Shown: positions 5,721 through 31,611, counted from the first letter of the stretch. The stretch is 64,000 nt of DNA from Antedon mediterranea (GCF_964355755.1 NC_092674.1:29264001-29328000), one strand, 5' to 3'. Numbers and translations are program-made. The notes: a model not told the origin generated them from the sequence alone.

Positions 5721-6690
5721 TCATGGATATAGTCTTGTTTTCTCCAAATATAATGGATATGGTATCATCCATATTGTGAGTGTACAACTGCAGAGAGGTT
5801 CTGTTGGTTCTGTCACTACCCGGATGCTTGTATTCCCAGTTGCATGCCAATACATATTAGATACATCACATGTTAAAAGTTGTTGGTCATTTTCCTGACG
5901 AATCTCCCGGATGCAGTATTGATTCGAGTTGTTGTGCATCTCATCTTCCGTACCATTTCTCGACCACAAGTACTCGACATTCAGAAGACTCCCTGCAGTT
6001 ATAGCACAAATGAAGCAAATTAATTTTAATCGATTTTGGAATAATATGGAGAGTATTCGTAAAACATCTTTGCACAGGTTGTTTTGCACTTTCACACATA
6101 AACGAAATATCCGTGTCATTTGTCATAACAGTGTAAGTGTAACTTTGATTTACTGTTTTGAGAAAACGTGTATTACCGTTTCCAACATCGTATAAGTAGA
6201 GTCTCACCTGGTCTGAAAGTTCATCCTCACAAAATACATTCACTAAATCTCCAATACCTGCGGACATAGGTATCGGACCGCAGACTATGTTTGACATACA
6301 TTTTGGAAGAACGACCAAATTTGTAACGTGCATTGTATACAATCCAGAATCTGCCAGGGCAGCATCAGTTATTGTCAGTGTATTGGTTGTGTAATTATTA
6401 TACGTTTCTTTACATTGTTTTATCGACAAACTAAAACGATCTTGACGTAGACCCAGTACATTTGTATTAAATTTATATTGGTAATTCGAAAGCCACAAGT
6501 CAGTACAAAATACACGTATATACCAAAATAGAACGGATTTTTCTCCTGCTGAACAATCAGTACTACATCTCATGGTCACGTTCTCTTCTTCATAAACCGT
6601 GACATTATGCATTACAACATTCACATTACAGGTTACACGATGCAGAGCCGAAATCAAGAATAGCACCACTGACAATGCAAACAACGTCAT
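5721..6690 (-). pseudogene. Ig-receptor family A, copy A1 (disrupted; could yield a truncated secreted product)
   Basis: Paralogous to A2/A3. A 27-nt in-frame deletion at ~6336 removes RCQVVEANY (second Ig Cys). A deletion/frameshift lies at ~6018-6030. The TM and tail are deleted at ~5741-5760. Confidence 0.85.
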
Positions 6691-7539
6691 TATCTTCGAC
6701 TACTGTAGGTATATAACCGTTATAGTTACAAACAATGCTATGATGTTCATTTTTTTTTTAAAGTGAATCAAAACTTACTTTCTATTATAAGAACTGTACC
6801 ATTAGGTACAGTTGGGTTTGTTTGTTCGATAATATTGTTTGTCATGGATAATATAATTTGATCAGTGGCAATCAACCAATATTAAAATGAAACTACTACA
6901 ATAATTACAAAACTAACAATAATGTAGACTATACACGCAATATTGCCTATATATCATAATCATATATTGCATATTTTAATTTATCTAGTAATATTATTAA
7001 TCACGTTTTAAAAGTACTACTATACTATTACGTAATATTACGATACGCAAGAGTTTCTATATTATTAGTTTGTCTTACACGATATGATATCGATATTGTT
7101 ACTGGCATAACATTAAATTTAGAATTATTATAATAGCTACCGTTAACATTGGTTAAATATATGAAAAGTTTCTTAACTTAAAAATAAGAAAGAGTTTAAC
7201 TCCGAATAAAGATAATTTGATATAATCATTATTATCTTATTATTTAAAGCTCGTTGTAATATATACAACATATATAGGTTAAAATATAAGTATAATCATT
7301 CTACAGTATAAATGTGTACATACGTATATAGGCCTATTATGTCATTTATTTGTCAAAATTGTCGTCGTTCGTTAAAATTACCTTGTTTCTTCAAAGTAAT
7401 ATATTATCTACTACCAAACTGGTGTCATGCTGCTCTGGCAACCGATTAACCAAAGAGTAATACGTGTAACAACAGTGAGCAAGGTGGCAGAGTGTAAAGA
7501 AATGTTCAGTTCGTTTTTATCATGGATAGTCTTGTTTTC

Positions 7540-8664
7540 TTACAGTCTACCGTCATATATATCAACAACCTCTATCTGTGCATCCTCTGTGTTGTCAGTA
7601 CATTTGATGTTGTTACACCTCTTACATATCACAATGAGAACAGCTATCATTAAGAAGACTTTGATTATCAATGGTATCATCCATATTGAGAGTGAACAAC
7701 TGCAGAGAGGTTCTGTTGGTCCTGTCACTACTCGGATGCTTGTGTTCCCAGTTGCATGCCAATATTTATTAGATACATCACATGATAGAAGTTGTTGGTC
7801 ACCTTCCTGACGAATCTCCCGGATGCAGTATTGATTTGAGTTGTGCATCTCGTATGTGGTACCATTTCTTGACCACGAGAACTCGACATTCAGAATACTC
7901 CCTGTAGTTATAGCACAAATGAAGCATACTTTATCACCATCGTAGAATGGCGTGTTGTTTAGCGGCAGGACTTGGATCGATGCTGTTTCAATAACATGGA
8001 GAGTATTCGTAAAACATTTTTGCCCTCGTACACTCTCACACATAAACGAAATACTTGTGTCATTTGTCATTACAGTGTAAACGTATCTTAGTGTTTCTTG
8101 GTTTAAGGTTTTGAGAAAACGTGTATTACTGTTTTCAACATTGTACAAGTAGAGTTTCAACGGGTCTGTATGTTCATCTTCACAAAATACATTCACTAAA
8201 TCACCAATACCTGCGGACATAGGTATCGGACCACAGACTATGTTTGACGTACATTTTGGAAGAACGACCAAATTTGTAACGTGCATTGTGTAGTTTGCTT
8301 CTACAACTTGGCATCTATACAATCCAGAATCTTCCTGGGCAGCATCAGTTATTGTCAGTGTATTTGTTGTGTAATTATTGTAAGTTTCAGTACACTGTTT
8401 TACCGACAAACTAAAACGATCTTGACGTTGACCCAGTGCATTTTTGTTAAATTTATATTGGTAATCAGAAAGCCACAAGTCAGTGCAAAATACACGTAGA
8501 AACCAAAATAAAACGGATTTTTCTCCTGTTGAACAATCGGCACTGCATCTCATGGTCACGTTCTCTCCTTCATAAACCGTAACATTATTGGCATCTGCAG
8601 CATTCTCATAACATGTTACACAACGCAAGGCCGAAATCAAGTACAGCACGTACAATGCAAGCAT
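7540..8664 (-). CDS. Ig-receptor A2: single-exon, 3 Ig-like domains, TM with Lys, short tail (374 aa)
   Basis: Signal peptide; V-like D1 (GENVTMRC..W..LTITDAAQEDSGLYRC); two further Cys-paired domains; TM IWMIPLIIKVFLMIAVLIVIC; tail ending DIYDGRL; many NxS/T sequons. Confidence 0.9.
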   Translation of the reverse strand: MLALYVLYLISALRCVTCYENAADANNVTVYEGENVTMRCSADCSTGEKSVLFWFLRVFCTDLWLSDYQYKFNKNALGQRQDRFSLSVKQCTETYNNYTTNTLTITDAAQEDSGLYRCQVVEANYTMHVTNLVVLPKCTSNIVCGPIPMSAGIGDLVNVFCEDEHTDPLKLYLYNVENSNTRFLKTLNQETLRYVYTVMTNDTSISFMCESVRGQKCFTNTLHVIETASIQVLPLNNTPFYDGDKVCFICAITTGSILNVEFSWSRNGTTYEMHNSNQYCIREIRQEGDQQLLSCDVSNKYWHATGNTSIRVVTGPTEPLCSCSLSIWMIPLIIKVFLMIAVLIVICKRCNNIKCTDNTEDAQIEVVDIYDGRL

Positions 8665-9225
8665 CCTGAATTTATCCGACTTGTAGAACCACTATTGTTT
8701 TAGTTACAAAAACTGCTATGATGTTCATTTTATTTCGAAAGTGAATCAAAACATACTTTCTATTATAGGAACTGTACCATTAGGTACAGTTGGGTTTGTT
8801 TGTTCGATAATATCGTTTGTTGGATAATATAATTTGATCAGTGGCAATCAACCAATATTAAAAATGAAACTACTACAATAATTACAAAACTAACAATAAT
8901 GTAGACTATACACGCAATATTGCGTAGGCATATCATAATCATATATTGCATATTTTAATTTATCTAGTAATATTATTAATCACGTTTTAAAAATACTACT
9001 ATACTATTAAGTAAAATTACGATACGCAAGAGTTTCTATATTATTAGTTTGTCTTACACGATATGATAACGATATTGTTACTGGCATAACATTAAATTTA
9101 GAATTATTATAATAGCTACCGTTAACATTGGTTAAATATATGAAAAGTTTCTTAACTTAAAAATGAGAAACAGTTTAACTCCGAATAAAGATACTTTGAT
9201 ATAATCATTATTATCTTATTATTTA

Positions 9226-9536
9226 CGAGTGAGTGAGTGGCCGAGCGGTTACAGTGGAACCGTAATTACGTAGCCATAACATCGGCAGGGGTTCGAGGCT
9301 CCATGGTTCTGGTGGTAGAACGAATCTTCTCGGATAAGGACTATAAACCGTAGGTCCAGTGTACACATAGCTCGTGTGCACTTTAAAGAACCTAGTACAT
9401 CTTTCGAGACGAGTAGGGGGTTACCCCGGTGTATTAGTACATCACAGCCACTGGGCCCTCTGGGAGACCAGTCTTTGACTGAAGAGATTACCCAGTATAA
9501 ATATATATTTCAATCAATCAATTTCAATTCAATTTC
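9226..9536 (+). mobile_element. tRNA-derived SINE with Deu/Nin-like central domain
   Basis: Box A TGGCCGAGCGG, box B GGTTCGAGGC, core ggataaggactataaaccgtaggtcc..gtgcactttaaagaacc, (caat)n-like tail. Absent from the paralogous spacer (empty site tattta|aagctcg at ~7246). Second copy at ~28478-28750. Confidence 0.85.
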
Positions 9537-9844
9537 AAGCTCGTTGTAATATATACATTATATATTGGTTAAAATATAAGTATAATCATTGTACAGTATA
9601 AATGTGTACATACGTATATAGGCCTAAACATAGGCCTATTATGTCATTTAGTTGTCAAAATTGTCGTCGTTCGTTAAAATTACCTTGTTTCTTCGAAGTA
9701 ATATATTATCTACAGTACTACCAAACTGGTGTCATGCTCTGGCAAACGATTAACAAAAGAGTGAATACGAGTAACAACGGTGAGCAAGGTGGCAGAGTGT
9801 AAAGAAATATTCAGCTCGTTTTTATCATGGATAGTCTGGTTTCC

Positions 9845-10960
9845 TTACAGTCTACCGTCATATATATCAACAACCTCTATCTGTGCATCCTCTGTGTTGT
9901 CAGTAGGTTTGATGTTGTTACACCTCTTACATATCACAATGAGAACAGCTATCATTAAAAAGACTTTGATTACCAATGGTATCATCCATATTGTGAGTGT
10001 ACAACTGGAGAGAGGTTCTGTTGGTTCTGTCAATACCCGGATGCTTGTGTTCCCAGTTGCATACCAATACGTATTAGATACATCACATGTTAAAACTTGT
10101 TGGTCATCTTCCTGACGAATCTCCCGGATGCAATATTGATTTGAGTTGTGCATCTCGTATGTGCTACCATTTCTCGACCACGAGTATTTGACATTCAGAA
10201 GACTCCCTGCAGTTATAGCACAAATGAAGCATATCTGGTCACCAGCGTAGAATGTAGTTCTATTGATCGGAACAACTTGAATCGATTTTGGAATAACATG
10301 GAGAGTGTTCGTAAAACATCTTTGCACAGGTTGTTTTCCACTTTCACACATAAACGAAATATCGGTGTCATTTGTCGTCACGGTGTAAGTGTAACTTTGA
10401 TTTGATGTTTTGAGAAAACGTGTATTACCGTTTCCAATATCGTATAAGTAGAGTCTAATCTCATCTGAAAGTTCATCCTCACAAAATACATTCACTAAAT
10501 CACCAATACCTGCGGACATGGGGATCGGATTGCAGACTATGTTTGATAGACATTTGGAAAGAATGACCAAATTCAATGTTAACAAAATCGTTGAGTTTGA
10601 AACTGTTATCATTCCACATTTATACCAACCAGAATCTACCTGGACAGCATCTGTTATTGTCAGTGTACTTGTTGTGTAATTATTATACGTTTCATTGCAT
10701 CGCTTTACCGATATATCAAAACGATCTTCTTGAGGCGAGTCCAATATATAATGGTTAAATTCATATCGGTGATCAGAAAGCCACACGTAAATGGAGCCTA
10801 TACGTAGATACCAAAGTAGAACGGTTTCTCCTGCTGAGCAATCTGAACTACATCTCATGGTAACGTTTTCTCCTTCATAAACCGTGACGTTATTCGTTTC
10901 AAAATGTATATGACATGTTACACAAACCAGGGCCAAAATCAAGTATAGCAACATAGACAT
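9845..10960 (-). CDS. Ig-receptor A3: divergent D1, TM with Lys, short tail (371 aa)
   Basis: Same architecture as A2. D1 is diverged (LRIGSIYVWLSDHRYEF..DSGWYKC); D2 resembles A1. Confidence 0.9.
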   Translation of the reverse strand: MSMLLYLILALVCVTCHIHFETNNVTVYEGENVTMRCSSDCSAGETVLLWYLRIGSIYVWLSDHRYEFNHYILDSPQEDRFDISVKRCNETYNNYTTSTLTITDAVQVDSGWYKCGMITVSNSTILLTLNLVILSKCLSNIVCNPIPMSAGIGDLVNVFCEDELSDEIRLYLYDIGNGNTRFLKTSNQSYTYTVTTNDTDISFMCESGKQPVQRCFTNTLHVIPKSIQVVPINRTTFYAGDQICFICAITAGSLLNVKYSWSRNGSTYEMHNSNQYCIREIRQEDDQQVLTCDVSNTYWYATGNTSIRVLTEPTEPLSSCTLTIWMIPLVIKVFLMIAVLIVICKRCNNIKPTDNTEDAQIEVVDIYDGRL

Positions 10961-11342
10961 CTTTTCAAGCGAACGTTTAATTTACTCTGACATGATATGA
11001 TTGCTTTGATTATCATCAACGGGTTTTTTTTTCGAAAGTAAAATCTCAATACCTATATTAAATATACACTGTACTTTAAATTGGTTTTGTTTTGACAAAC
11101 GACAAACATTCACTTTTCAACAAGTTTTCGTAAGCCACTAACACGAAACCCATATGATCAATTTTAAAAGTTGGATATGCGTTTGTGGAGTTGGCCTAAT
11201 TTAGATTAAAGCTTGTTGAAAAGAATCCACCTCACAACATTATGTAGGCCTCACTGCAGTATAATCATTGAGTTACAGACATTACATTGTGGTACCAACC
11301 TCGAGGTGTATATGCAAATTAATTTGATTCAGTTCACCCACG

Positions 11343-13226
11343 TTATAAATTGTCAGTTTCTTCGTAGTCATTATTAATATGATCCACAACCAAACCGATA
11401 CCATGATCAGGCAACCAATCTTGATATCTTGGTTCCTCTAAAACATGATATAATTGGCCCATCGTCGTATCCACAGATCGCTCTTCTCGAAGCGTGTCGT
11501 CATGAAGTCTTCGATTGTCAATAGGCTGTGACGTCATCTGGTGACGAGTGATTGCAGAATTCTGTTCAGCACTTATTTCATCATCAGGTATTTCTTGATA
11601 TACATTAGTTACGTCATCTGTGGACAATATTTTGTTATCTTTTTCTAACCATGATCTCTGTTCTTCTTTAACGGGTTCAACAACCTGCTGCGGAGTCCTC
11701 GGAGCAAATGAAGATCTCTGCCTTTGTATTCTTCTTCTATCATCGGATATTTCGTTATAAACACGCGATACATTATTTTTCGGGCGAATTGGTACTAACA
11801 ATATCTTGTCTTGTTCATAAACGTGTTCTTGATCTAGTTCACCAAAATGTCTTTTCCGATTATCTTGGATATTGCCATCGAATTCCCGTTCTGGTGACTG
11901 CTGCTCCTGATGCTGTCTACCAACAAGTGAATGATCTTGATTGTTGCTATCAACTTCTTGTTCTTGCTGTTCCTGGTCAAGTGTACTTAAAGGAACTGAT
12001 TGACGATTGCCATCAAATATTTGTGGCTGGTCCTCTTCTTCGACGCCGTGAGTAATTGTATGTGGATGGTTGATTCCATTGTGATAGATATTTTCTGCTA
12101 AAGTGACGCCTGTAGATTCATTCATTTGAATTAATTGTACATTGTCAGTGTTGATCAAGGGTTTAACGCGTATACAACTCTTACAGCATATCGCAAGGAG
12201 CACAACTATTATGACGCAGATGATGACTGGCACAAAGAACCATAACATACGTTTCCATCTTAGTAAATAATGTAAATCTATCACCAGTGTTGTATTTCCA
12301 GTTGCATGCCAATACTTATTAGATACAACACATGTTACAACTTGTTGGTCATCTTCCTGACGAATCTCCTGGATGCAGTATTGATTTGAGTTCTGCATCT
12401 CATCTTCGGTACTATTTCTCGACCAAAAGTACTCAACATCTACAAGACTCCCTGCAGTTATTATGCAAACAAAGCATACTTTATCACCAGCGTAGAATGG
12501 GGTGTTGTTTAGTGAAAGGACTTGGATGGATGTTGTTTCAATAACATGGAGAGTATTTGTAAAACATGTTTGTCCTTGTTTATTTTCACACATAAACGAA
12601 ATATCTGTGTCGTTTCTCGTAACGGTGTAATTGTAACTTAACTCTTTAGTATGGTTTAATATTGTAAGAAAACGTGTACCACCTTTTGTACCGAAATACA
12701 AGTGGAGTGTCAGCTGGTCTGAAAGTTCATCCTTACAAAATACATTCACTAAATCTCCAATACCTGCGGACTTGGGTATAGGACCGCAGACTATGTTTGA
12801 CGTACATTTTGGAAGAACGACCAAATTTGTAACGTGCATTGTGTAGTTTGCTTCTACAACTTGGCATCTATACAGTCCAGAATCTGCCTGGGCAGCATCA
12901 GTTATTATCAGTGTATTTGTTGTGTAATTATTATACGTTTCTTTACATTGTTTTACCGACAAACTAAAACGATCTTGACGTTGACTCAGTGCATTTTTGT
13001 TCAATTTATATTTGTAATCAGAAAGCCACAAGTCAGTGCAAAATACGCGTAGAGACCAAAATAAAACGGATTTTTCTCCTGTTGAACAATCAGCACTGCA
13101 TCTCATGGTAACGTTCTCTCCTTCATAAACTGTAACATTATTCGTTTCAAAATTCACATCACATGTTACACTACGTAGAGACGCCAAGTACAGTATAACC
13201 AACACAAGTGTTCTAGTAAGCGTCAT
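11343..13226 (-). CDS. Ig-receptor A4: long Tyr-rich cytoplasmic tail (627 aa from ATG 13226)
   Basis: Family A ectodomain; uncharged TM MLWFFVPVIICVIIVVLLAICC; ~275-aa Q/E-rich tail with ENIY, EHVY, VYNEI, VYQEI, LYHVL and NDYEE. The first true ATG precedes the signal peptide. Confidence 0.9.
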   Translation of the reverse strand: MTLTRTLVLVILYLASLRSVTCDVNFETNNVTVYEGENVTMRCSADCSTGEKSVLFWSLRVFCTDLWLSDYKYKLNKNALSQRQDRFSLSVKQCKETYNNYTTNTLIITDAAQADSGLYRCQVVEANYTMHVTNLVVLPKCTSNIVCGPIPKSAGIGDLVNVFCKDELSDQLTLHLYFGTKGGTRFLTILNHTKELSYNYTVTRNDTDISFMCENKQGQTCFTNTLHVIETTSIQVLSLNNTPFYAGDKVCFVCIITAGSLVDVEYFWSRNSTEDEMQNSNQYCIQEIRQEDDQQVVTCVVSNKYWHATGNTTLVIDLHYLLRWKRMLWFFVPVIICVIIVVLLAICCKSCIRVKPLINTDNVQLIQMNESTGVTLAENIYHNGINHPHTITHGVEEEDQPQIFDGNRQSVPLSTLDQEQQEQEVDSNNQDHSLVGRQHQEQQSPEREFDGNIQDNRKRHFGELDQEHVYEQDKILLVPIRPKNNVSRVYNEISDDRRRIQRQRSSFAPRTPQQVVEPVKEEQRSWLEKDNKILSTDDVTNVYQEIPDDEISAEQNSAITRHQMTSQPIDNRRLHDDTLREERSVDTTMGQLYHVLEEPRYQDWLPDHGIGLVVDHINNDYEETDNL

Positions 13227-13665
13227 TTTAGTGGATGGATGGTGTCGAACAATTATGAATGAATGAGTGAACGGAGAATATACTTTTTGTTCATACACTC
13301 ACTTTTCTGTGAAATATAATTTCTAAACCAGGAAATTGCGTAATTTGTTTCGTATCTGTTTCCGAAACAACATTATATAATAATATGCTCTATAATGTTA
13401 ATTGCGTATAGTTGATATTAGTATCTCGTGATGAGAAATAACTTATTTTCAAGGTAAACGTATTATCTTTCACGTATCAATGATACCAGCGGCTAACTAT
13501 AGTTTAGACTAGTGAGAGTAGTAAGTAGTGTACATGGATTGACACCGTGTAGAATTGTCCAGTCCATGGTATGGTCCGATACCCATTTTCCCTAAATTTA
13601 TAATAGTAATATTATACACACCTTCAACAGTAATAGACTTTGTCATCTCTCATTAATGTAAGCAT

Positions 13666-15042
13666 TTAATGACTGAGTGTTGTGCAGTATAATTGACCGC
13701 CCTGAGTAGATTTGAAACTATCATTAGAACCAGGCCGAGATACACGCATTCGCTCAATAGTATCCGCATACACGTGTCCTGGATAAGGTGGTTTTCTAAC
13801 TTCGTGCTCTTTGTCAGCTAGCCCAGAGTATTTCTTTTGATCATTCTGACGAACATCATTCTTAATAGTGTCGTAAATCGATTCCTTTCGGTCATTTGAC
13901 TGTCGTTTAAGCTTTCTTGTTTTGGAACAAATCACAACAGCCAGGCACACAATTGTGATTATGAAAACCGTATTAGTTGATAACAACAGAAGTATAATGA
14001 TAAACATGGTTGAAGGATCGGCGAACGTTGGTAGGTTAGAAGTAAGTCCAGTCGTCTGGTCAGATGAAATAAGTATCGGTGTTACCGCAACATTGATGGG
14101 CGCGCTTACAGCTGCATACTGGTGGCGGTGCTTAGTAGACACGTTGCAGAAAATGAGCTCCTTACCATTTGTAGCTTCAACCTCATTGACGCAGTACTGG
14201 TTTGATCCAGGATGCTGGTCATTTTCATGACTTGTTGACCACCAATATTCAACGTCTGTAAAACCTTCTCCACGGATTACGCAGACGAAACACATCCGGT
14301 TGACATCTTGTTGCCAGAGCTGTAGAACTTCAACTATCATCTTCTGGATAATATGCATGTTGTTTGTGACACAACCTCTTTGTTCTTGGTTCCGGTTATT
14401 CACCAGTTCACATACGAAATATACAATAGTATCATCACTGCTAACGGTGTAAACGTGACTTAGCGTCAGGTTTGTAATCTGACGGTTTACTGTCTGAAGT
14501 AAACGCTTTATATGATCTTTCTCGTTAAACGCATACAGATTTAACTCCGTATTTTGGTCTTTACCGTCAGCCACACACGACAAGGTCACTAAATCACCAG
14601 GAACGGCAGATATTGGTACTCGATTGCAGGTTGGATTTTGCAAACACAGATCAACAACTTTGAATTCTATAGAACTTACAGAATTCGTACCAGCAACACC
14701 GCATTGATATACCCCAGCATCGCCTTGATCCGCGCCAGTTATCGACAGTGTACTTGTGATGTTCATTACGTCGTCTGCGTTGCGTTTCTTGTAAACGGAC
14801 ACACTGTAACGGTTTTGGCGGGAATCCAGAAGATCAAGATTCAATTTGTCAAATACATCGACAAGCCACATTTTCCCGGTGTACCATAATATGCTTTCTG
14901 TATTCCCAGAAGACGTGATCGAACAACTGAGAGTCGCCGTTTCTCCTTTGTAAATTTGAAAATCTGGGGTTCGTACAATCTCAACCCCATCTGCATAATA
15001 TATGAACACTAACTGTAGAAATATTTTAGTAACAACTGCCAT
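13666..15042 (-). CDS. Ig-receptor family B, copy B1 (458 aa)
   Basis: Signal peptide; V-like domain (GETATLSC..W..LSITGADQGDAGVYQC); two more Ig-like domains; S/T stalk; TM; tail with SIYDTI, KYSGL, HVYAD and QLYC. Single ORF. Confidence 0.9.
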   Translation of the reverse strand: MAVVTKIFLQLVFIYYADGVEIVRTPDFQIYKGETATLSCSITSSGNTESILWYTGKMWLVDVFDKLNLDLLDSRQNRYSVSVYKKRNADDVMNITSTLSITGADQGDAGVYQCGVAGTNSVSSIEFKVVDLCLQNPTCNRVPISAVPGDLVTLSCVADGKDQNTELNLYAFNEKDHIKRLLQTVNRQITNLTLSHVYTVSSDDTIVYFVCELVNNRNQEQRGCVTNNMHIIQKMIVEVLQLWQQDVNRMCFVCVIRGEGFTDVEYWWSTSHENDQHPGSNQYCVNEVEATNGKELIFCNVSTKHRHQYAAVSAPINVAVTPILISSDQTTGLTSNLPTFADPSTMFIIILLLLSTNTVFIITIVCLAVVICSKTRKLKRQSNDRKESIYDTIKNDVRQNDQKKYSGLADKEHEVRKPPYPGHVYADTIERMRVSRPGSNDSFKSTQGGQLYCTTLSH

Positions 15043-15769
15043 TTTTAAAACAAAAAATTGTTTTTGCTAAATTATATTTCGCAATACGACTACTATCCAG
15101 GTCTCTCGTCCATGGAAAGACAAATGCAACATTGGTTTCTATAAATATTTAAAAGATAATCAAAAGTTATCTTATCTTTTTTTTTATTTCGAAAGCTATT
15201 ATAACTGATTCACTTTCAGATTAGATCAATGGCTATATGCGATTTGTTTAGATAATAATATAGTGTATACAAACAGTACGTACATACAATTATAGGCTAC
15301 ACAATCATTTGTTTTGATGTATTTGTGCGGGCCCTTGTGAAAAAAGTAATGTTATCAAACTGACCTGCGCCAGAGATGGTTTTGATCTTTAAAGAAGACT
15401 AACAAAAGATAAACAATTTAAATGAGTACCGCATCGCATAACTTTGTTTCTTGATTATGTATTATATTAAAAAAATGTAAAATTGCCAAGAACGCTTTTT
15501 TCACACGCATTCGTTTTGTCGCCGTTTTGTTGTTGTAGTTTTTTGACAGCTCATGAATATGTAAAACCAGTTGTTAACACACTAGCGTTGTGTGTGAACA
15601 CACACTAGCATTGTGTGTGAACGCACCTGTATTTGCTTTGCGTTGTAAAAAGACCTTGCTATTTGCAACGCAGTGTATATATACAGCAACTACATCAGTC
15701 CATAGAGATATTATAAAATCTCTTCTCGAGTATCTGAACAAAGAGAGGCAAAAGTTCAAACCGTTTCTC

Positions 15770-16026
15770 AGTACACGGATGTCAGCATCAAGGGAAAAAA
15801 AGCCAGTTTCTTCCCTAAACCGAGTAAGTACTAGGTTACAATAAAAATATAGAGGAAGCAAGCCTAGAATATAGATTGATTCCAATGGTGACAAGAAAGC
15901 AATATTTGGTAAACGATAAATTTTTAGGACCACAATGGAAATAAGTTTGCCGTCTCGGTACTTTTTTGTGTTTTTTATCCTATTGATTTTATATCAGAAT
16001 AAAGGAAAAAAAAAAAATGTGGATCT
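15770..16026 (-). pseudogene. Orphan, decayed copy of the ALG8 terminal exon
   Basis: Encodes IAFLSPLESIYILGLLPLYFYCNLV as in 25703-25964. Its 3' part is deleted and ~90 bp are inserted just after the acceptor. Confidence 0.85.
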
Positions 16027-16438
16027 CTGTAAAACAATAACAAAACAACTTTTTGAAACAATTTGTTAGTTTTAAAAAGCAATAATCTTTATTAATTAAA
16101 AAAAAAGTATTAAAGCATTCAATATTTCAAATTAATTGATCAACATTATTAAAACGTTTTCTATTCAATAGATCATAAAATATGTAAAAATAAAATAAAT
16201 TAGAATTCTATATAGGTATCAAAAGTAACAATGTTTTTACATTGTTTATTCACTTCAGAAATCTGACCAATCATTAGTTGTTTTAAAGTCATGTGATAAA
16301 ATGTAAATGATCTGAATGAATACGTGTAAATTACATACATTAAACAAGAAAGAGTTTTAAAGTTTAATAGTGAGCAAGTTAGAGTGTAAAGAAATGATAA
16401 ATTTCAGTTCGTTTTTATCATAGTTGTTGTTTTCTTAG

Positions 16439-17569
16439 TCAACGGTCATATATGTCAACAACCTCCATCTGTGCATCAACTGTGTTGTCAGTAGGTTTGA
16501 TATTGTTACACCTCTTACAGATCACAATGAGGACAGCTATCATTAAGAAGACTTTGATTACCAATGGTATCATCCATATTGTGAGTGTACAACTGCAGAG
16601 AGGTTCTGTTGGTTCTGCCACTACCCGGATGCTTGTATTCCCAGTTGCATGCCAATACTTATTAGATACAACACATGTTACAACTTGTTGGTCATCTTCC
16701 TGACGAATCTCCTGGATGCAGTATTGATTTGAGTTCTGCATCTCATCTTCGGTACTATTTCTCGACCAAAAGTACTCAACATCTACAAGACTCCCTGCAG
16801 TTATTATGCAAACAAAGCATACTTTATCACCAGCGTAGAATGGGGTGTTGTTTAGTGAAAGGACTTGGATGGATGTTGTTTCAATAACATGGAGAGTATT
16901 TGTAAAACATGTTTGTCCTTGTTTATTTTCACACATAAACGAAATATCTGTGTCGTTTCTCGTAACGGTGTAATTGTAACTTAACTCTTTAGTATGGTTT
17001 AATATTGTAAGAAAACGTGTACCACCTTTTGTACCGAAATACAAGTGGAGTGTCAGCTGGTCTGAAAGTTCATCCTTACAAAATACATTCACTAAATCTC
17101 CAATACCTGCGGACTTGGGTATAGGACCGCAGACTATGTTTGACGTACATTTTGGAAGAATGACCAAATTTGTAACGTGCATTGTGTAGTTTGCTTCTAC
17201 AACTTGGCAGCTATACAATCCAGAATCTGCCTGGGCAGCATCAGTTATTATCAGTGTATTTGTTGTGTAATTATTATACGTTTCTTTACATTGTTTTACC
17301 GACAAACTAAAACGATCTTGACGTTGACCCAGTGCATTTTTGTTCAATTTATATTTGTAATCAGAAAGCCACAAGTCAGTGCAAAATACGCGTAGAGACC
17401 AAAATATAACGGATTTTTCTCCTGTTGAACAATCAGCACTGCATCTCATGGTAACGTTCTCTCCTTCATAAACTGTAACATTATTCGTTTCAAAATTCAC
17501 ATCACATGTTACACTACGTAGAGACGCCAAGTACAGTATAACCAACACAAGTGTTCTAGTAAGCGTCAT
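16439..17569 (-). CDS. Ig-receptor A5: A4-type ectodomain with short Lys-TM tail (376 aa)
   Basis: Ectodomain differs from A4 at 4 residues. After YWHATGNT it switches to SIRVVAEPTEPLCSCTLTIWMIPLVIKV..DIYDR. Confidence 0.9.
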   Translation of the reverse strand: MTLTRTLVLVILYLASLRSVTCDVNFETNNVTVYEGENVTMRCSADCSTGEKSVIFWSLRVFCTDLWLSDYKYKLNKNALGQRQDRFSLSVKQCKETYNNYTTNTLIITDAAQADSGLYSCQVVEANYTMHVTNLVILPKCTSNIVCGPIPKSAGIGDLVNVFCKDELSDQLTLHLYFGTKGGTRFLTILNHTKELSYNYTVTRNDTDISFMCENKQGQTCFTNTLHVIETTSIQVLSLNNTPFYAGDKVCFVCIITAGSLVDVEYFWSRNSTEDEMQNSNQYCIQEIRQEDDQQVVTCVVSNKYWHATGNTSIRVVAEPTEPLCSCTLTIWMIPLVIKVFLMIAVLIVICKRCNNIKPTDNTVDAQMEVVDIYDR

Positions 17570-18011
17570 TTTAGTGGATGGATGGTGTCGAACAATTATG
17601 AATGAATGAGTGAACGGAGAATATACTTTTTGTTCATACACTCACTTATCTGTGAAATATAATTTCTAAACCAGGAAATTGCGTAATTTGTTTCGTATCT
17701 GTTTCCGAAACAACATTATATAATAATATGCTCTATAATGTTAATTGCGTATAGTTGATATTATTAGTATCTCGTGATGAGAAATAACTTATTTTCAAGG
17801 TAAACGTATTATCTTTCACGTATCAATGATACCAGCGGCTAACTATAGTTTAGACTAGTGAGAGTAGTAAGTAGTGTACATGGATTGACACCGTGTAGAA
17901 TTGTCCAGTCCATGGTATGGTCCGATACCCATTTTCCCTAAATTTATAATAGTAATATTATACACACCTTCAACAGTAATAGACTTTGTCATCTCTCATT
18001 AATGTAAGCAT

Positions 18012-19388
18012 TTAATGACTGAGTGTTGTGCAGTATAATTGACCGCCCTGAGTAGATTTGAAACTATCATTAGAACCAGGCCGAGATACACGCATTCGCT
18101 CAATAGTATCCGCATACACGTGTCCTGGATAAGGTGGTTTTCTAACTTCGTGCTCTTTGTCAGCTAGCCCAGAGTATTTCTTTTGATCATTCTGACGAAC
18201 ATCATTCTTAATAGTGTCGTAAATCGATTCCTTTCGGTCATTTGACTGTCGTTTAAGCTTTCTTGTTTTGGAACAAATCACAACAGCCAGGCACACAATT
18301 GTGATTATGAAAACCGTATTAGTTGATAACAACAGAAGTATAATGATAAACATGGTTGAAGGATCGGCGAACGTTGGTAGGTTAGAAGTAAGCCCAGTCG
18401 TCTGGTCAGATGAAATAAGTATCGGTGTTACCACAACTTTGATAGGCGCACTTGCAGCTGTATACTGGTGGCGGTGCTTAGTAGACACGTTGCAGAAAAT
18501 GAACTCCTTACCATTTGTACCTTCAACCTCATTGACGCAGTACTGGTTTGATCCCGGATGCTGGTCAATGTCACGACTTGTTGTCCACCAATATTCAACG
18601 TCTGTAAAACCGTCTCCACGAATTACGCAGACGAAACACACCCGGTTGACATCTTGTTGCCAAAGCTGTAGAACTTCAACTATCATCTTCTGGATAACAT
18701 GCATGTTGTTTGTGACACAACCTCTTTGTTCTTGGTTCCGCTCATTCACCAGTTCACATACGAAATACACAATAGTATCATCACTGCTGACGGTGTAAAC
18801 GTGGCTTAGCGTCAGGTTTGTAATCTGACGGTTTACTGTCTGAAGTAAACGCTTTATCTGATCTTTCGCGTCAAACGCATACAGACTTAACTCGGTATTT
18901 TGGTCTTTACCGTCAGCCACACACGACAAGGTCACTAAATCACCAGGAACAGCAGATATTGGTACTCGATTGCAGGTTGGGTTTTGCAAACACAGTTCAA
19001 CAACTTTGAATTCTATAGAACTTACAGAATTCGTACCAGCAACACCGCATTGATACACCCCAGCATCGCCTTGATCCGCGCCAGTTATCGACAGTGTACT
19101 TGTGATGTTCATTACGTCGTCTGCGTTGCGTTTCTTGTAAACGGACACACTGTAACGGTTTTGGCGGGAACCCAGAAGATCGAGATTCAATTTGTCAAAT
19201 ACATCGACAAGCCAAATTTGCCTGGTGTACCATAATATGCTTTCTGTATTTCCAGAAGACGTGATCGAACAACTGAGAGTCGCCGTTTCTCCTTTATAAA
19301 TCTGAAAATCTGGGGTTTGTACAATCTCAACCCCATCTGCATAATATATGAACACTAACTGTAGAAATATTTTAGTAACAACTGCCAT
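18012..19388 (-). CDS. Ig-receptor B2 (458 aa)
   Basis: Near-identical paralog of B1/B3 with an intact ORF. Confidence 0.9.
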   Translation of the reverse strand: MAVVTKIFLQLVFIYYADGVEIVQTPDFQIYKGETATLSCSITSSGNTESILWYTRQIWLVDVFDKLNLDLLGSRQNRYSVSVYKKRNADDVMNITSTLSITGADQGDAGVYQCGVAGTNSVSSIEFKVVELCLQNPTCNRVPISAVPGDLVTLSCVADGKDQNTELSLYAFDAKDQIKRLLQTVNRQITNLTLSHVYTVSSDDTIVYFVCELVNERNQEQRGCVTNNMHVIQKMIVEVLQLWQQDVNRVCFVCVIRGDGFTDVEYWWTTSRDIDQHPGSNQYCVNEVEGTNGKEFIFCNVSTKHRHQYTAASAPIKVVVTPILISSDQTTGLTSNLPTFADPSTMFIIILLLLSTNTVFIITIVCLAVVICSKTRKLKRQSNDRKESIYDTIKNDVRQNDQKKYSGLADKEHEVRKPPYPGHVYADTIERMRVSRPGSNDSFKSTQGGQLYCTTLSH

Positions 19389-20263
19389 TTTTAAAACAAA
19401 AAATTGTTTTTGCTAAATTAGATTTCGCAATACGACTACTATCCAGGTCTCTCGTCCATGGAAAGACAAATGCAACATTGGTTTCTATAAATATTTAAAA
19501 GATAATCAAAAGTTATCTTAAATGTTTTTTATTTCAGTATAACTGATTCACTTTCAGATTAGATATGGCTATATGCCATTTGTTTAGATAATATAATAGT
19601 TTATACAAACAGTAACATTCTGTTTATTTGAATACATATAAGCTACACATAGCTATAGGTTCCGATCATAATCATTTTTTTTGATGTTGCGGGCCCTTGT
19701 AAAAAAGTAATGTTATCAAACTGACCTGGGCCAGAGCTATATATGGTTTTGATCCTAAAAGAGAACTAACAACATATAAACAATTTAAATTAGTACTTTG
19801 TTTATGTATTATATCAAGCCAAGAAAGCTACAGTTTTGTTGTTTATTGACAGCTATGAATATGTAAAAGCCAGTTAACACACTAGCTTTGTGTGTGAACA
19901 CACACTATCGTTGTATGTGAACACACACTATCGTTGTCTGTGAACGCACTTGTATTTACTTTGCGTTGTAAATCGACCTTGCCATTTACAACGCAGTGTT
20001 ATATACAACAACTACATCAGTCCACAGAGATATTATAAAATCTCTGAGTATCTGAACAATGAGAGGCAAAAGCTCAAACCGTTTCTATGCATTTATTTTA
20101 TATATTCATTTTACCATTGATTTACAAAAAATTTAAAATAATTTCTTATACTATTTTAAATATATACTGTAATCTTTAACTTTTACTAATAAACCTTTGT
20201 TGTGACATTTTTCCTATTATTTGTAAGTAGTACTGAGGCCGAAATATAAATTTAACATGATTT

Positions 20264-20526
20264 CTGAATGCGCTTATCTTTCTGTGAATGTATCTTCCCC
20301 TCCCGCTTTAATGAATTATAATAAAATTTAAACCAGGCCCATGAAACACCTGCTGCACAGTAGACGGATGTCAGCATCAAGGGAAAGAAAGCCAGTTTCT
20401 CCCTAAACCAAGTAAGTAATGTACTAAGTTACAATACAAATATAGAGGAAGTAAGCCTAGAATAATATAGATTGATTCCAATGGTGACAAGAAAGCAATG
20501 TGTGGTAAATGATACGTTTTTGGATC
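20264..20526 (-). pseudogene. Orphan copy of the ALG8 terminal exon
   Basis: Nearly identical to 25703-25964 with the acceptor intact. It has a 1-nt deletion (ttctccctaaa vs ttctcccctaaa), a 3-nt insertion and TAG changed to CAG. Confidence 0.88.
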
Positions 20527-20828
20527 TCTGTAAAACAATAACAAAACAAACTTTTTGATACAAATTGTTAGTTTTAAAAAGCAATAATCTTTTTATAATT
20601 AATTATGAAAGTGATTGTTAAACAAAACAAAACTATAAACAATGAAACAGGAAGAATAATAAATAAATAAAAACAAAAAGAAGTAGCAGAGCATTAAATA
20701 TTTCAAATTAATTGATCAACATTATTAAAACGTTAACGTTTTTTATTCAATAGATCATACAATATGTAAAAATAAAATAAATTAGAATTCTATATAGGTA
20801 TCAAAAGTAACAATGTTTTTACATTGTT

Positions 20829-21665
20829 TTTATTTATTTTTATTTATTTTATTTATTTAATCGGTATAAAAAGACTCAAAATACAACTCATAGTTGAAAT
20901 GAAGAGCTTACATATGAAAATGATAATTCACATAGCCTAAACAAAGTTAAACGAAGAAAAAACACATTAAAGCCTAAGAAACAGTAATAATTACTGTATA
21001 ATTCGTTAAACTTAAAATTACTATAAAAAATGCACAAATTCTTAAATATACAATTTTAAAAAATAGAGACTAATATTAATAATCACATTATTTTTAAACA
21101 CCAATAAAATATATGTAAAATTCATTAAACTAAAAGTACAATAAAAATTGCACAAAATTCAAATTCAAAGGATGATATTAATAATTACAAATTCTTATAT
21201 TATATTTACAAATTTAAAAAATTGAATCTTATAAATCACATTTTTATAGTCCCATAAGTAGTTACAAAAAAAAATTTAAAGCATAAAACAACCACTTGAC
21301 AAAGAGACAATAGAACATACTCTTCGAAATGTCTTTAAAGGTTAATTGTCCAAATCTATTCATTATTTAAGAGTCCAATAACAGTTGGAATTGTTGATGC
21401 AGCAAGTCTTTTAGTCCGACATCGTGGCACATCAAACTTATTAACTTTACGCAAACACCTTGTCGGCTTTTCTTTTTCAGGGATCCATTCCTTAAAGCGA
21501 TCCGACTTTAGCAGCCCCTTTCCAAAGTTATAAAGAAGAACCTGACGTCTATGCTGCAATGTCTTTAACTTGAGGGTTTCAAGTGATTTTGCGTAACTAA
21601 CATAGTTTTGATATCCAATAATAAGTTTTACAACACGCTTTTGGATGAATTCAAGTTGATCACTC
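20829..21665 (-). mobile_element. 5'-truncated non-LTR retrotransposon (CR1/L2/Crack-like ORF2 C-terminus, 3' UTR, (TAAA)n tail)
   Basis: Peptide LEFIQKRVVKLI..Y..SL..LKL.TL..RR..PRCRTKR..STIP..LLN. The tttat repeats at 20830-20859 form the tail. Flanked by tgttt on both sides; empty site attgtttattcacttcag at ~16241. Confidence 0.85.
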
Positions 21666-21859
21666 TGTTTATTCACTTCAGAAATCTGACCAATCATTGG
21701 TTGTTTTAAAGTCATGTGATAAATGTAAATGATCTGAATGATCACGTGTAAATTACATACATTAAACAAGAAAGAGTTTTAAAGTTTAATAGTGAGCAGT
21801 TAGGGTGTAAAGGAATGATAAATTTCAGTTCGTTTTTATCATAGTTGTTGTTTTCTTAG

Positions 21860-22990
21860 TCAACGGTCATATATGTCAACAACCTCCATCTGTGCATCAA
21901 CTGTGTTGTCAGTAGGTTTGATGTTGTTACACCTCTTACAGATCACAATGAGGACAGCTACCATAAAGAAGACTTTGATTACCAATGGTATCATCCATAT
22001 TGTGAGTGTACAACTGCAGAGAGGTTCTGTTGGTTCTGCCACTAACCGGATACTTGTATTCCCAATTGCATGCCAATACTTATTAGATACATCACATGTT
22101 ACAAGTTGTTGGTCATCTTCCTGACGAATCTCCTGGATGCAGTATTGATTTGAGTTCTGCATCTCATCTTCGGTACTATTTCTCGACCAAAAGTACTCAA
22201 CATCTACAAGACTCCCTGCAGTTATTATGCAAACAAAGCATACTTTATCACCAGCGTAGAATGGGGTGTTGTTTAGTGAAAGGACTTGGATGGATGTTGT
22301 TTCAATAACGTGGAGAGTATTTGTAAAACATGTTTGTCCTTGTTTATTTTCACACATAAACGAAATATCTGTGTCGTTTCTCGTAACGGTGTAAATGTAA
22401 CTTAACTCTTTAGTATGGTTTAATATTGTAAGAAAACGTGTACCACCTTTTGTACCAAAATACAAGTGGAGTGTCAGCTGGTCTGAAAGTTCATCCTTAC
22501 AAAATACATTCACTAAATCTCCAATACCTGCGGACTTGGGTATACGACCGCAGACTATGTTTGACGTACATTTTGGAAGAACGACCAAATTTGTAACGTG
22601 CATTGTGTAGTTTGCTTCTACAACTTGGCAGCTATACAGTCCAGAATCTGCCTGGGCAGCATCAGTTATTATCAGTGTATTTGTTGTGTAATTATTGTAA
22701 GTTTCATTACATTCTTTTACCGACAAACTAAAACGATCTTGACGTTGACCCAGTGCATTTTTGTTAAATTTATATTTGTAATCAGAAAGCCACAAGTCAG
22801 TGCAAAATACGCGTAGAGACCACAGTAGATTGGATTTGTTTCCTGCTGAACAATCTGAACTGCATCTCATGGTAACGTTCTCTCCTTCATAAACCGTGAC
22901 ATTATTCGTTTCCACATTCTCATCACATGTTACACTACGCAGAGACGTCAAGTACAGTATAATCAACACAAGTATTCTAGTAAGCGTCAT
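21860..22990 (-). CDS. Ig-receptor A6: short Lys-TM tail (376 aa)
   Basis: Paralog of A5 with a variant D1 N-terminal patch (CSSDCSAGNKSNLLW). Confidence 0.9.
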   Translation of the reverse strand: MTLTRILVLIILYLTSLRSVTCDENVETNNVTVYEGENVTMRCSSDCSAGNKSNLLWSLRVFCTDLWLSDYKYKFNKNALGQRQDRFSLSVKECNETYNNYTTNTLIITDAAQADSGLYSCQVVEANYTMHVTNLVVLPKCTSNIVCGRIPKSAGIGDLVNVFCKDELSDQLTLHLYFGTKGGTRFLTILNHTKELSYIYTVTRNDTDISFMCENKQGQTCFTNTLHVIETTSIQVLSLNNTPFYAGDKVCFVCIITAGSLVDVEYFWSRNSTEDEMQNSNQYCIQEIRQEDDQQLVTCDVSNKYWHAIGNTSIRLVAEPTEPLCSCTLTIWMIPLVIKVFFMVAVLIVICKRCNNIKPTDNTVDAQMEVVDIYDR

Positions 22991-23421
22991 TTTTAGTGGA
23001 TGGATGGTGTCGAACAATTATGAATGAAAGAGTTAACGGAGAATATACTTTTTGTGCATACACTCACTTATCTGTGAAATATAATTTCTAAACCAGGAAA
23101 TTGCGTAATTTGTTTCGTATCTGTTTAATTAATTATTAATTGCGTATAGTTGATATTAGTATCTCGTGATGAGAAATAACTTATTTTCAAGGTAAACATA
23201 TCGTATTATCTGTCACGTATCAATGACACCAGCGGCAAACTCTTATAGTTTAGACTAAGCAGTAGTGAGAGTAGTAAGTAGTGTAAATGCATTAACACCG
23301 TGTAGAATTATCCAGTCCATGGTATGGTCCGATACCTCTTTTCCCAAAATTTATAATAATAATAATATGATACACACCTTCAACAGTAATAGACTTTGTC
23401 ATCTCTTATTAATGTAAGCAT

Positions 23422-24798
23422 TTAATGACCGAGTGTTGTGCAGTATAATTGACCGCCCTGAGTAGATTTGAAACTGTCATTAGAACCAGCCCGAGATACA
23501 CGCATTCGCTCAATAGTATCCGCATACACGTGTCCCGGATAAGGTGCTTTTCTAACTTCGTGCTCTTTGTCAGCTAGCCCAGAGTATTTCTTTTGATCAT
23601 TCTGACGAACATCATTCTTAATAGTGTCATAAATCGATTCCTTTCGGTCATTTGACTGTCGTTTAAGCTTTCTTGTTTTGGAACAAATCACAACAGCCAG
23701 GCACACAATTGTGATTATGAAAACCGTATTAGTTGATAACAACAGAAGTAGAATGATAAACATGGTTGACGGATCGTCGAACGTTGGTAGGTTAGAAGTA
23801 AGCCCAGTCGTCTGGTCAGATGAAATAAGTATCGGTGTTACCAAAACATTGATGGGCGCACTTGCAGCTGCATACTGGTGGCGGTGCTTAGTAGACACGT
23901 TGCAGAAAATGAACTCCTTACCATTTGTACCTTCAACCTCATTGACGCAGTACTGGTTTGATCCCGGATGCTGGTCAATGTCACGACTTGTTGTCCACCA
24001 ATATTCAACGTCTGTAAAACCGTCTCCACGAATTACGCAGACGAAACACACCCGGTTGACATCTTGTTGCCAAAGCTGTAGAACTTCAACTATCATCTTC
24101 TGGATAACATGCATGTTGTTTGTGACACAACCTCTTTGTTCTTGGTTCCGCTCATTCACCAGTTCACATACGAAATACACAATAGTATCATCACTGCTGA
24201 CGGTGTAAACGTGACTTAGCGTCAGGTTTGTAATCTGACGGGTTACTGTCTGAAGTAAACGCTTTATCTGATCTTTCTCGTTAAACGCATACAGATTTAA
24301 CTCCGTATTTTGGTCTTTACCGTCAGCCACACAAGACAACGTCACTAAATCACCAGGAACGGCAGATAGTGGTACTCGATTGCAGGTTGGATTTTGCAAA
24401 CACAGTTCAACAACTTTGAATTCTATAGAACTTACAGAATTCGTACCAGCAACACCGCATTGATACACCCCAGCATCCCCTTGATCCGCGCCAGTTATCG
24501 ACAGTGTACTTGTGATGTTCATTACGTCGTCTGCGTTGCGTTTCTTGTAAACGGACACACTGTAACGGTTTTGGCGGAAACCCAGAAGATCAAGATTCAA
24601 TTTGTCAAATACATCGACAAGCCAAATTTGCCCGGTGTACCATAATATGCTTTCTGTATTCCCAGAAGACGTGATCGAACAACTGAGAGTCGCCGTTTCT
24701 CCTTTGTAAATTTGAAAATCTGGGGTTCGTACAATCTCAACCCCATCTGCATAATATATGAACACTAACTGTAGAAATATTTTAGTAACAACTGCCAT
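23422..24798 (-). CDS. Ig-receptor B3 (458 aa)
   Basis: Near-identical paralog of B1/B2 with an intact ORF. Confidence 0.9.
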   Translation of the reverse strand: MAVVTKIFLQLVFIYYADGVEIVRTPDFQIYKGETATLSCSITSSGNTESILWYTGQIWLVDVFDKLNLDLLGFRQNRYSVSVYKKRNADDVMNITSTLSITGADQGDAGVYQCGVAGTNSVSSIEFKVVELCLQNPTCNRVPLSAVPGDLVTLSCVADGKDQNTELNLYAFNEKDQIKRLLQTVTRQITNLTLSHVYTVSSDDTIVYFVCELVNERNQEQRGCVTNNMHVIQKMIVEVLQLWQQDVNRVCFVCVIRGDGFTDVEYWWTTSRDIDQHPGSNQYCVNEVEGTNGKEFIFCNVSTKHRHQYAAASAPINVLVTPILISSDQTTGLTSNLPTFDDPSTMFIILLLLLSTNTVFIITIVCLAVVICSKTRKLKRQSNDRKESIYDTIKNDVRQNDQKKYSGLADKEHEVRKAPYPGHVYADTIERMRVSRAGSNDSFKSTQGGQLYCTTLGH

Positions 24799-25702
24799 TT
24801 TTAAAACAAAAAATTGTTTTTGCTAAATTATATTTCGCAATACGACTACTATCCAGGTCTCTCGTCCATGGAAAGACAAATGCAACATTGGTTTCTATAA
24901 ATATTTAAAAGATAATCAAAAGTTATCTTAAATGTTTTTTTTTTATTTCGAAAGCTATTACAGTATAACTGATTCACTTTCAGATTAGATATGGCTATAT
25001 GCTATTTGTTTAGATAATATAATAGTTTATACAAACAGTAACATTCTGTTTATTTGAATACATATAAGCTACACATACAGTAGCTATAGGTTCCTATCAT
25101 AATCATTTGTTTTGATGTTGCGGGCCCTTGTAAAAAAGTAATGTTATCAAACTGACCTGGGCCAGAGCATATAAACAATTTAAATTAGTACATGTATCGC
25201 ATCGCAAAACTTTGTTTATGTATTATGTCAAGACAAGAAAGCTACAGTTTTGTTGTTTATTGACAGCTTATGAATATGTAAAAGCCAGTTGTTAACACAC
25301 TAGCTTTGTGTGTGAACACACACTATCGTTGTATGTGAACACACACTATCGTTGTATGTGAACACACACTATCGTTGTGTATGAACGCATTTGTATTTAC
25401 TTTGCGTTGTAAATCGACCTTGCCATTTACACCGCAGTGTTATATACAACAACTACATCAGTCCACAAAGATATTACAAAATCTCTGAGTATCTGAACAA
25501 AGAGAGGCAAAAGCTCAAACCGTTTCTCTGCACTTATTTTATATATTTATTTTATCATTGATTTAAAAACAAATTTAAAATAATTTCGTATACTATTTTA
25601 AATATATACTGTATTCTTTAACATTTACTAATAAACCTTTGTTGTGACATTTTTCCTATTATTTGTAAGTAGTACTGAGGCCGAAATATAAAGTTAACAT
25701 TT

Positions 25703-31611
<5,909 letters not shown>

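Follow-up and report, generated by a model that had tools for sequence, protein, structure and literature searches.

The locus

The DNA analysed here, hereafter the window, is a stretch of 64,000 nucleotides from Antedon mediterranea (GCF_964355755.1 NC_092674.1:29264001-29328000). It is AT-rich, of animal type, and holds an array of immunoglobulin (Ig)-domain receptor genes beside ALG8. An earlier note, made from the sequence alone, had described a duplication junction in which the two ends of this array meet. Two such joins are present, and they are most likely the scar of a head-to-tail duplication of a block of ~10.7 kb (5624-16318) that set the far end of the array on its near end. All coordinates are those of the window, and the genes and exons of the array and of ALG8 lie on the minus strand.

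To the left of ALG8 are nine genes without introns, which fall into two paralogous types, A and B (31% identical). Ig-domain profile matches in A1-A6 and B1-B3 exceed the Pfam cut-offs; the scores for A5 are 41.2 bits for Ig_3 (cut-off 30), 33.5 for ig (21.8) and 31.6 for V-set (26), and those for A4 and B2 are similar. A1 (5721-6699) is a dead receptor gene with a 38-bp frameshifting deletion, from which ~125 bp covering the membrane span, tail and stop codon have also gone. The outer end (5624-5627) of its 3' flank (5624-5739, termed a1) is taken as the left breakpoint of the first duplication, and the sequence leftward of it is unique in the window. A2 (7540-8664) and A3 (9845-10960) are intact three-Ig receptors, each short-tailed and with a Lys inside its membrane span. 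A4 (11343-13226) encodes 627 amino acids, including a divergent uncharged membrane span and a tail of ~290 residues with several Tyr motifs; its homology to A5 and A6 begins at 12290. A5 (16439-17569) and A6 (21860-22990) are intact chimeric receptor genes of 376 amino acids each. B1 (13666-15042), a paralogous three-Ig receptor with SIYDTI in its tail, encodes 458 amino acids, as do the intact genes B2 (18012-19388) and B3 (23422-24798). For comparison, the array was divided into unit 1 (12290-16318), unit 2 (16633-21739) and unit 3 (22054-26342).

ALG8 and its last-exon copies

Nine open reading frames (ORFs), running from 31139 down to 25706, give Alg6_Alg8 matches in the order of the profile. 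A tblastn search with the 536-residue A. mediterranea ALG8 protein aligned several exons at 100% identity, including 26490-26564, and also returned two incomplete last-exon copies, at 20267-20583 and at 15771-15924. The penultimate exon (26490-26564; residues 426-450) lies outside the duplication and the functional last exon (25706-26029; approximately residues 451-536) inside the duplicated block. The right breakpoint of the first duplication (26339-26342), beyond which the sequence is unique in the window, therefore falls inside the last intron, ~310 bp upstream of the last exon, and every new unit consequently carries a spare ALG8 last exon.

The three last-exon copies are seen directly, and only the rightmost, still joined to the rest of ALG8, is intact. 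The copy in unit 2 (20267-20583) has a 1-bp deletion that shifts the frame, a 3-bp insertion and a change of the stop codon from TAG to CAG. The copy in unit 1 (15771-15924) is disrupted by a high-copy insertion of 95 bp and has lost 4 bp and, from its 3' part, 270 bp. The 95-bp insert (15925-16020), which interrupts the exon copy and ends in an A-run, has a read depth two orders of magnitude above that of neighbouring bins in the DNA runs X1 and X2. A terminal exon present three times with the inner two copies decayed is the prediction of a tandem duplication with one break in that intron, and the exon copies give both polarity and independent proof of the duplication.

The joins

The segment 15400-16700 was compared with the whole window using BLAST. 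Within it, 15769-16318 matched 25797-26342 over 590 columns (71.9%, E = 6.7e-90), 16304-16436 matched 5612-5739 over 133 columns (84.2%, E = 7.4e-32) and 16243-16700 matched 21666-22121 (96.7%, E = 6.9e-176). Join 1, where the end of the copied ALG8 last intron meets the start of the copy of a1, is thereby placed at 16315-16319 with about four ambiguous bases; join 2, a copy of join 1, lies at 21737-21741. The 60 bases preceding join 1 (16256-16315) differ from 26281-26339 by one mismatch and two 1-base gaps. From 16319 the sequence aatacgtgtaaatt... is that of 5627 onward except for a 5-base indel. The a1 copy begins at 16316-16319 with the counterpart of 5624-5627, ~110 bp downstream of the former stop codon of A1. 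These alignments bear out the earlier note, which had read the sequence up to ~16315 as ALG8 intron (26283-26339), the sequence from ~16319 as the A1 3' flank from 5627, and ~21737 as a recurrence of the junction. The stretch 26283-26339 does fall between the two exons named above.

As a control for chance similarity, the A5 flank was aligned with the A1 flank, giving a score of 88 (108/125), and with 200 shuffled sequences, which gave a mean of 14.1, a standard deviation of 2.1 and a maximum of 23. The same flank scored 45 against A2, 38 against A3 and 15 against A4; the A6 flank scored 77, 38, 32 and 12 against A1, A2, A3 and A4, respectively. A closer match of the A5 and A6 flanks to A2 or A3, which the earlier note had named as evidence against its reading, was thus looked for, and A1 came out best in both cases.

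Comparison of 5327-5927 with 26040-26640 gave no extended homology between the two breakpoints, the best local match having an E value of 0.14. At join 1 at most 3-4 bases (a/atg) can be assigned to either side. The outer flanks 4600-5626 and 26343-27000 have no second match in the window other than small repeats internal to 4687-4987. The first join is non-homologous. Short inverted repeats occur by both breakpoints (5507-5586, with 20-nucleotide arms ~40 bp left of 5624, and 26334-26381, with 10-nucleotide arms spanning 26339); they may be there by chance and are not taken as causal.

Read support was sought in k-mer contigs from short reads of one sample (runs X1-X4). The join at 16315/16316 is bridged, with at least 31 letters on each side, by contigs of X1 (record 5, 16285-16368), X3 (record 17, 16271-16368) and X4 (record 28, 16285-16376). 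All four runs branch at 16315 into TTGGCCTTCTAACAG..., the undisturbed intron from 26340 onward, and the read graph branches at 16247 into the tail of the retroelement-like insert of unit 2 described below. Variants specific to join 2 are also carried by read contigs. In X6, the one organism-B run included, contigs lie on the retroelement and over part of the A5 ectodomain, and at 97% likeness none extends across the join, a result that bears on neither its presence nor its absence there.

Chimeric structure of A5 and A6

In A5, the part derived from A1 occupies 16316-16632 and consists of the 3' flank, the cytoplasmic tail, the membrane span with its Lys and the stalk; the switch from A1-like to A4-like sequence falls within 16633-16659 (22054-22080 in A6). 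In the protein, the switch lies directly past the third Ig domain (...HATGNT/SIRVVAEPTEP...). The flank (16316-16438) is A1-like over its whole length, matches A2 and A3 in part and does not match A4. The segment encoding the membrane span and tail (16439-16563) is 90% identical to A2 and 92% identical to A3, has no match in A4 and is absent from A1, where it corresponds to the ~125 bp that have been lost. The stalk (16564-16632) is identical to A1 at 68/69 positions, to A3 at 66/69 and to A2 at 64/69, and cannot be aligned with A4. Over the first 268 bp of the ectodomain (16633-16900), A5 is identical to A4 at 267/268 positions, with 88.8% identity to A1 (166/187), 86.2% to A2 and 81.9% to A3.

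A1, A5 and A6 share one stalk peptide, EPTEPLCSCTLTIWMIP, which differs at 1-3 residues in A2 and A3 and is unrelated to A4 in this region. Separate trees place the two parts of the genes differently: the tails group as (A1,(A5,A6)) against (A2,A3) with support of 100/100, and the ectodomains as ((A4,A5),A6) with support of 95/94 for the inner pair and 100/100 for the three together, A1 lying outside. A5 and A6 are chimeras with an A1-type flank and stalk and an A4-type ectodomain, as had been proposed, together with the identity of their stalk to that of A1, from the first reading of the sequence. Since A1 now lacks both its anchor and its reading frame, A5 and A6 presumably keep the former anchor of A1.

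Between A6 (22640-22990) and A5 (17218-17569; A4 counterpart 12875-13226), in the region of the signal peptide and first Ig domain, there are 14 residue replacements and six silent changes, the replacements clustering at residues 24-56 and 93-95. They could reflect relaxed or diversifying change in what is likely to be the ligand-binding domain.

Similarity among the three units

The three units, which are 93-96% alike, were aligned and every variable site was classed; block coordinates are given for unit 1. The resemblance is seen directly to change from block to block. In block 12290-14021, units 1 and 2 agree at 61 sites and units 2 and 3 at four, units 1 and 2 being 0.41% apart and unit 3 3.8% away. 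The corresponding counts in block 14047-14450 are one and 20 (units 2 and 3 0.99% apart, unit 1 5.2-5.7% away), in block 15101-16179 they are 11 and 50 (units 2 and 3 2.6% apart, unit 1 7.1% away) and in block 16180-16318 they are nine and one (units 1 and 2 2.3% apart, unit 3 ~8% away), where three indels follow the same pattern as the nine sites. Block 14451-15100 has six sites of each class, and units 1 and 3 are closest there (1.85% versus 3.08%). The switches of closest paralogue along the unit are significant (Fisher p = 1.4e-22 and 1.4e-5 for two switches).

In the unconverted blocks units 2 and 3 are 1.0-2.6% apart and unit 1 differs from both by 5.2-7.2%. Judged by divergence, units 2 and 3 are the younger pair, in keeping with the proposal of the earlier note that the shortened [A,B] unit was duplicated again; this applies outside the tracts of later exchange. 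The last ~135 bp before join 1 (16180-16315, with equivalents at 20762 and 26191) mark the probable exchange point of the second duplication, and in unit 2 these bases would descend from unit 1. With an unequal crossover between copies of the ALG8 block near 16180, join 2 would therefore be a copy of join 1 and not a new break. The second duplication was most likely homology-driven in this way. An origin of unit 2 by a simple unequal crossover inside the A-B part was also considered and rejected, as it predicts the reverse of the left/right pattern that is seen.

The tract 12301-14021 (1.73 kb), with its partner at 16644-18367, starts at the start of the A4/A5 homology and ends inside B. Across it A4-B1 and A5-B2 are 99.6% alike, and A4 and A5, not A5 and A6, are the closest pair. 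This near-identity is far younger than either duplication and therefore points to recent gene conversion between units 1 and 2. The interval in which units 1 and 3 are closest (14451-15100 in B1, 18797-19446 in B2 and 24207-24856 in B3) comprises the signal peptide and first Ig domain of B; it could reflect another conversion or faster change in B2.

Unit 2 alone contains an 844-bp, 5'-truncated retroelement-like insert on the minus strand (20830-21673). Its tail at 20830 is an A-rich simple repeat, and it is accompanied by a short target duplication (tgttt..). The insert is high-copy in the reads, where other copies continue past 21673. It is taken to be a later retroelement insertion, and the non-long-terminal-repeat (non-LTR) label is based on the tail, the 5' truncation, the target duplication and the high copy number, together with a C-terminal motif that we take to be non-LTR-like. 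A Pfam search with the ORF at 21356-21670 gave no match. Contigs of run X5, which is RNA only by guess, fall on stretches of A5 and B2 as well as on the retroelement, and no inference about expression was drawn from them.

Proposed history and alternatives

We infer the order and mechanism of the events as follows. A non-homologous join would first have duplicated the block [a1-A1-A2-A3-A4-B-ALG8 3' end], with the right break in the last intron of ALG8. Within the copy on the right, A1 and A4 would have exchanged sequence just past the third Ig domain, with the loss of ~6.5 kb; the hybrid gene that was left would carry the A4 ectodomain on the stalk, short tail and Lys-containing membrane span of A1. 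The third unit, and with it a copy of the join, would then have come from unequal crossing-over of the two ALG8-block copies at a point ~140 bp ahead of the join. Later a retroelement would have entered unit 2, the spare ALG8 exons would have decayed and A1 would have lost its anchor and reading frame. Finally, a recent gene conversion of 1.7 kb would have homogenized A4-B1 with A5-B2. We regard this history, taken as a whole from duplication and A1/A4 hybrid through crossover and retroelement to conversion, as likely.

Several observations weigh against it. The switch in the second step lies no more than 27 bp from the start of the A1/A4 homology, an odd position if the exchange was a homologous crossover of the classical kind; a template switch may have taken place instead, or later conversion may have moved the boundary. 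The variable sites point to no single direction for the conversion: at the 30 sites where A6 differs from identical A4 and A5, the change is shared-derived in A4/A5 in seven cases and specific to A6 in 11, with 12 ambiguous. Block 14451-15100, in which units 1 and 3 are closest, fits none of the proposed steps. The distance between the A1 and A5 flanks ranges from ~3.7% to 6.5%, depending on how the indel-rich last 20 bases are aligned. The order of the events is deduced from divergence only, and the read support all comes from one sample, which may be the assembled one.

The earlier note had proposed a tandem duplication of [A1..A4,B] followed by a fusion of A1 and A4 within the new copy. Its join and its chimeric ancestry stand; the succession of duplication and deletion is indistinguishable from an origin in one step, in which a single replication-based rearrangement made two template switches, from the ALG8 last intron to the A1 flank and from the A1 stalk to the start of the A4 ectodomain, without any intermediate that had a complete second array and without a subsequent deletion. 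One event would then replace two, and a non-homologous first join with at most 3-4 ambiguous bases would be expected. The second switch, within 27 bp of the edge of the A1/A4 homology and in identical runs of 9-18 bp, suits template switching at short homology better than a classical crossover and mildly favours the one-step version. The final sequence is nevertheless the same as after duplication and deletion, so that nothing here discriminates between them, and the A4 conversion ends at the same homology edge and could have shifted a crossover that was originally more distal. We consider the one-step origin rather unlikely and prefer duplication followed by deletion.

Both of these accounts make A5 and A6 the recombinant genes. 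Were A4 instead the chimera, the short tail of A5 and A6 would be the ancestral one of the A4 lineage, the duplication would have covered no more than [A,B,ALG8 end] and A4 would later have gained a foreign long tail. The short Lys-containing tails are indeed the majority form (A2, A3, A5 and A6), and the A4 tail, leftward of 12290, reaches only ~70% likeness to the other tails across the membrane span, with no relative detected. The identity of A5 to A1, however, drops between the stalk (68/69) and the adjoining ectodomain (166/187, 88.8%), and A5 is therefore recombinant relative to A1 whatever the history of A4. The flanks of A5 and A6 are moreover A1-type and not of the A2/A3 type expected of an internal member of the array, and an additional event would be needed; we hold this explanation to be very improbable. 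We give still less credence to an assembly artefact, in which units 2 and 3, or all of the extra units, would be alleles or mis-joined contigs placed in tandem. Sequences that are 93-96% alike are in the range where assemblers can duplicate haplotypes, and the reads represent a single sample. Against this, k-mer contigs, which are independent of the assembler, bridge the join and carry the variants of both join 1 and join 2, and the units have their own insertions and deletions. The end of unit 2 resembles the internal end of unit 1 and not the terminal one. Nor does the triplicated ALG8 exon, with its decayed inner copies, suit a reading of units 2 and 3 as alleles: the unit 2 copy is frameshifted and has lost its stop codon, and as an allele it would be an ALG8 null.

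Relatives and predicted fold

The eight intact genes (A2-A6 and B1-B3) appear to be unannotated. An exhaustive protein search returned 84 proteins at E <= 0.001, none of them more than 38% identical apart from one 21-residue stretch at 49%; for A2-A6 and B1-B3, no counterpart above 38% identity was found among representatives of ~15 billion predicted proteins. Word-indexed protein searches with A5 and B2 in the near-length range gave no match at E <= 0.001, and matches in the Protein Atlas were confined to generic Ig clusters of vertebrates. Among proteins of the same build, the nearest are uncharacterized, 450-660 residues long, from the crinoids Anneissia japonica and A. mediterranea, and 22-29% identical. 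The A4 tail has no significant similarity to the 660-residue protein P0138 of Anneissia japonica (best E value 2.3) or to the 622-residue protein P0157 (best E value 0.011, in a signal-peptide-like stretch). The genes are predicted to be crinoid-specific three-Ig receptors.

The predicted model of A5 consists of three beta-sandwich domains and one membrane helix, with a predicted local distance difference test (pLDDT) value of 69. Its top Foldseek matches are 5zo1_A (E = 9e-14), 5vl3_S, 4p2y_A and 2wng. The modelled domain layout is the same as that of known three-Ig proteins (nectin and nectin-like 4, domains 1-3 of CD22, RAGE and SIRP-alpha), with identities of only 11-20% and low whole-chain template-modelling scores (TM-scores; 0.2-0.3), which show no membership of a specific family.

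Other repeats in the window

A second tandem duplication (32692-35743 and 40152-43179; 87-95% alike) contains two adhesion G-protein-coupled receptor (GPCR)-like genes on the minus strand, with ORFs at 33306-35692 and 40751-43249 and a 7tm_2 match at 32802-32990. A minisatellite of ~1.1 kb (39082-40208) with a 60-bp period lies between them. A perfect (100%) inverted repeat of 828 bp (49323-50150 and 52604-53431), with its arms ~2.45 kb apart, could be explained by a very recent inverted duplication, by transposon ends or by an error of assembly. Four copies of an element of ~180 bp, 93-97% alike (43627-43810, 45781-45965, 46762-46940 and 63247-63434), match themselves in both orientations and resemble a palindromic miniature transposon. 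The A2-A3 spacer (9231-9507) and an ALG8 intron (28479-28750) share a dispersed repeat (81% alike), and a tandem repeat of ~5.5 copies with a period of ~118 bp is found at 61172-61833.

Comparison with known receptor systems

Tandem segmental duplication with a non-homologous breakpoint junction has been described for copy-number variants. The locus resembles these in the placing of the distal end on the proximal end, the unique outer flanks, the lack of breakpoint homology and the few ambiguous bases, and also in that part of a neighbouring gene (the ALG8 last exon) was carried along and is decaying. It differs in that the second copy has been shortened to the hybrid plus B and amplified again, so that the join flanks a unit of 4.6-5.4 kb and not the 10.7-kb block. 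The duplication scar is a known, ordinary kind of event and a clear example of the growth of a receptor family.

In vertebrates, the KIR, LILR, Ly49 and CEACAM clusters expand by unequal crossing-over, which creates hybrid genes. The crinoid locus is likewise a tandem array of Ig-type genes in which the hybrid combines the ectodomain of a long-tailed member with a charged-span short tail and copies appear to have arisen by unequal exchange; it differs in its host, in its intronless genes and in having no detectable orthology (best relatives 22-30% identical). Vertebrate clusters of this kind are treated in work on LILR copy number (PMC3894450) and on CEACAM (PMC2832619).

The membrane span of A3, A5 and A6 contains IPLVIKVFLMIAVLIVIC and that of A2 contains LIIK; the spans of A4 and B have no basic residue. 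From vertebrate receptors, a basic residue in the membrane span of a short-tailed partner is known to be significant. The ITIM (immunoreceptor tyrosine-based inhibitory motif) has the form (S/I/V/L)xYxx(I/V/L). The A4 tail contains YNEI, YQEI and YHVL, and the neighbouring B has SIYDTI; no canonical ITIM was found in the A4 tail, its three motifs all being without the required residue at -2. A4 and A5 differ at four residues before the switch, and their tails cannot be aligned. By analogy A4 and A5 may work like a paired-receptor locus, and they are not classed as one because the A4 tail motifs are not canonical ITIMs.

The homogenization of paired opposing receptors by gene conversion has been termed 'merohomogenization' (Fossum et al. 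2011; PMC3210942). The likeness is that the ectodomains of the long-tailed A4 and the short-tailed A5 are 99.6% identical, their spans and tails are unlike and the tract stops at a domain boundary. The differences are that the tract runs beyond the ligand-binding part, through the spacer into the 3' third of B (14021), and that its left limit is simply the end of the homology. A narrow literature search found no paper on such receptors in echinoderms, and a review consulted names echinoderms a single time without reference to paired receptors. It is a tentative suggestion, and one that we think will more probably fail than hold, that a crinoid has, independently of vertebrates, built up a paired-receptor locus, in which the duplication rescued the Lys anchor of the now dead A1 onto the ectodomain of the long-tailed A4 and conversion keeps the ectodomains in step (0.4% apart). 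If it were true, an echinoderm would show merohomogenization of opposing receptors, and would do so in genes of a family missed by annotation.

The locus keeps almost every stage of the growth of a receptor family: a datable non-homologous scar, a pseudo-exon of a housekeeping gene, a hybrid formed at a domain boundary, an expansion that would be due to unequal exchange and a fresh gene conversion. If the long-tailed and Lys-anchored pair should prove to signal oppositely, it would be an independent echinoderm case of the paired-receptor design of vertebrate innate immunity.

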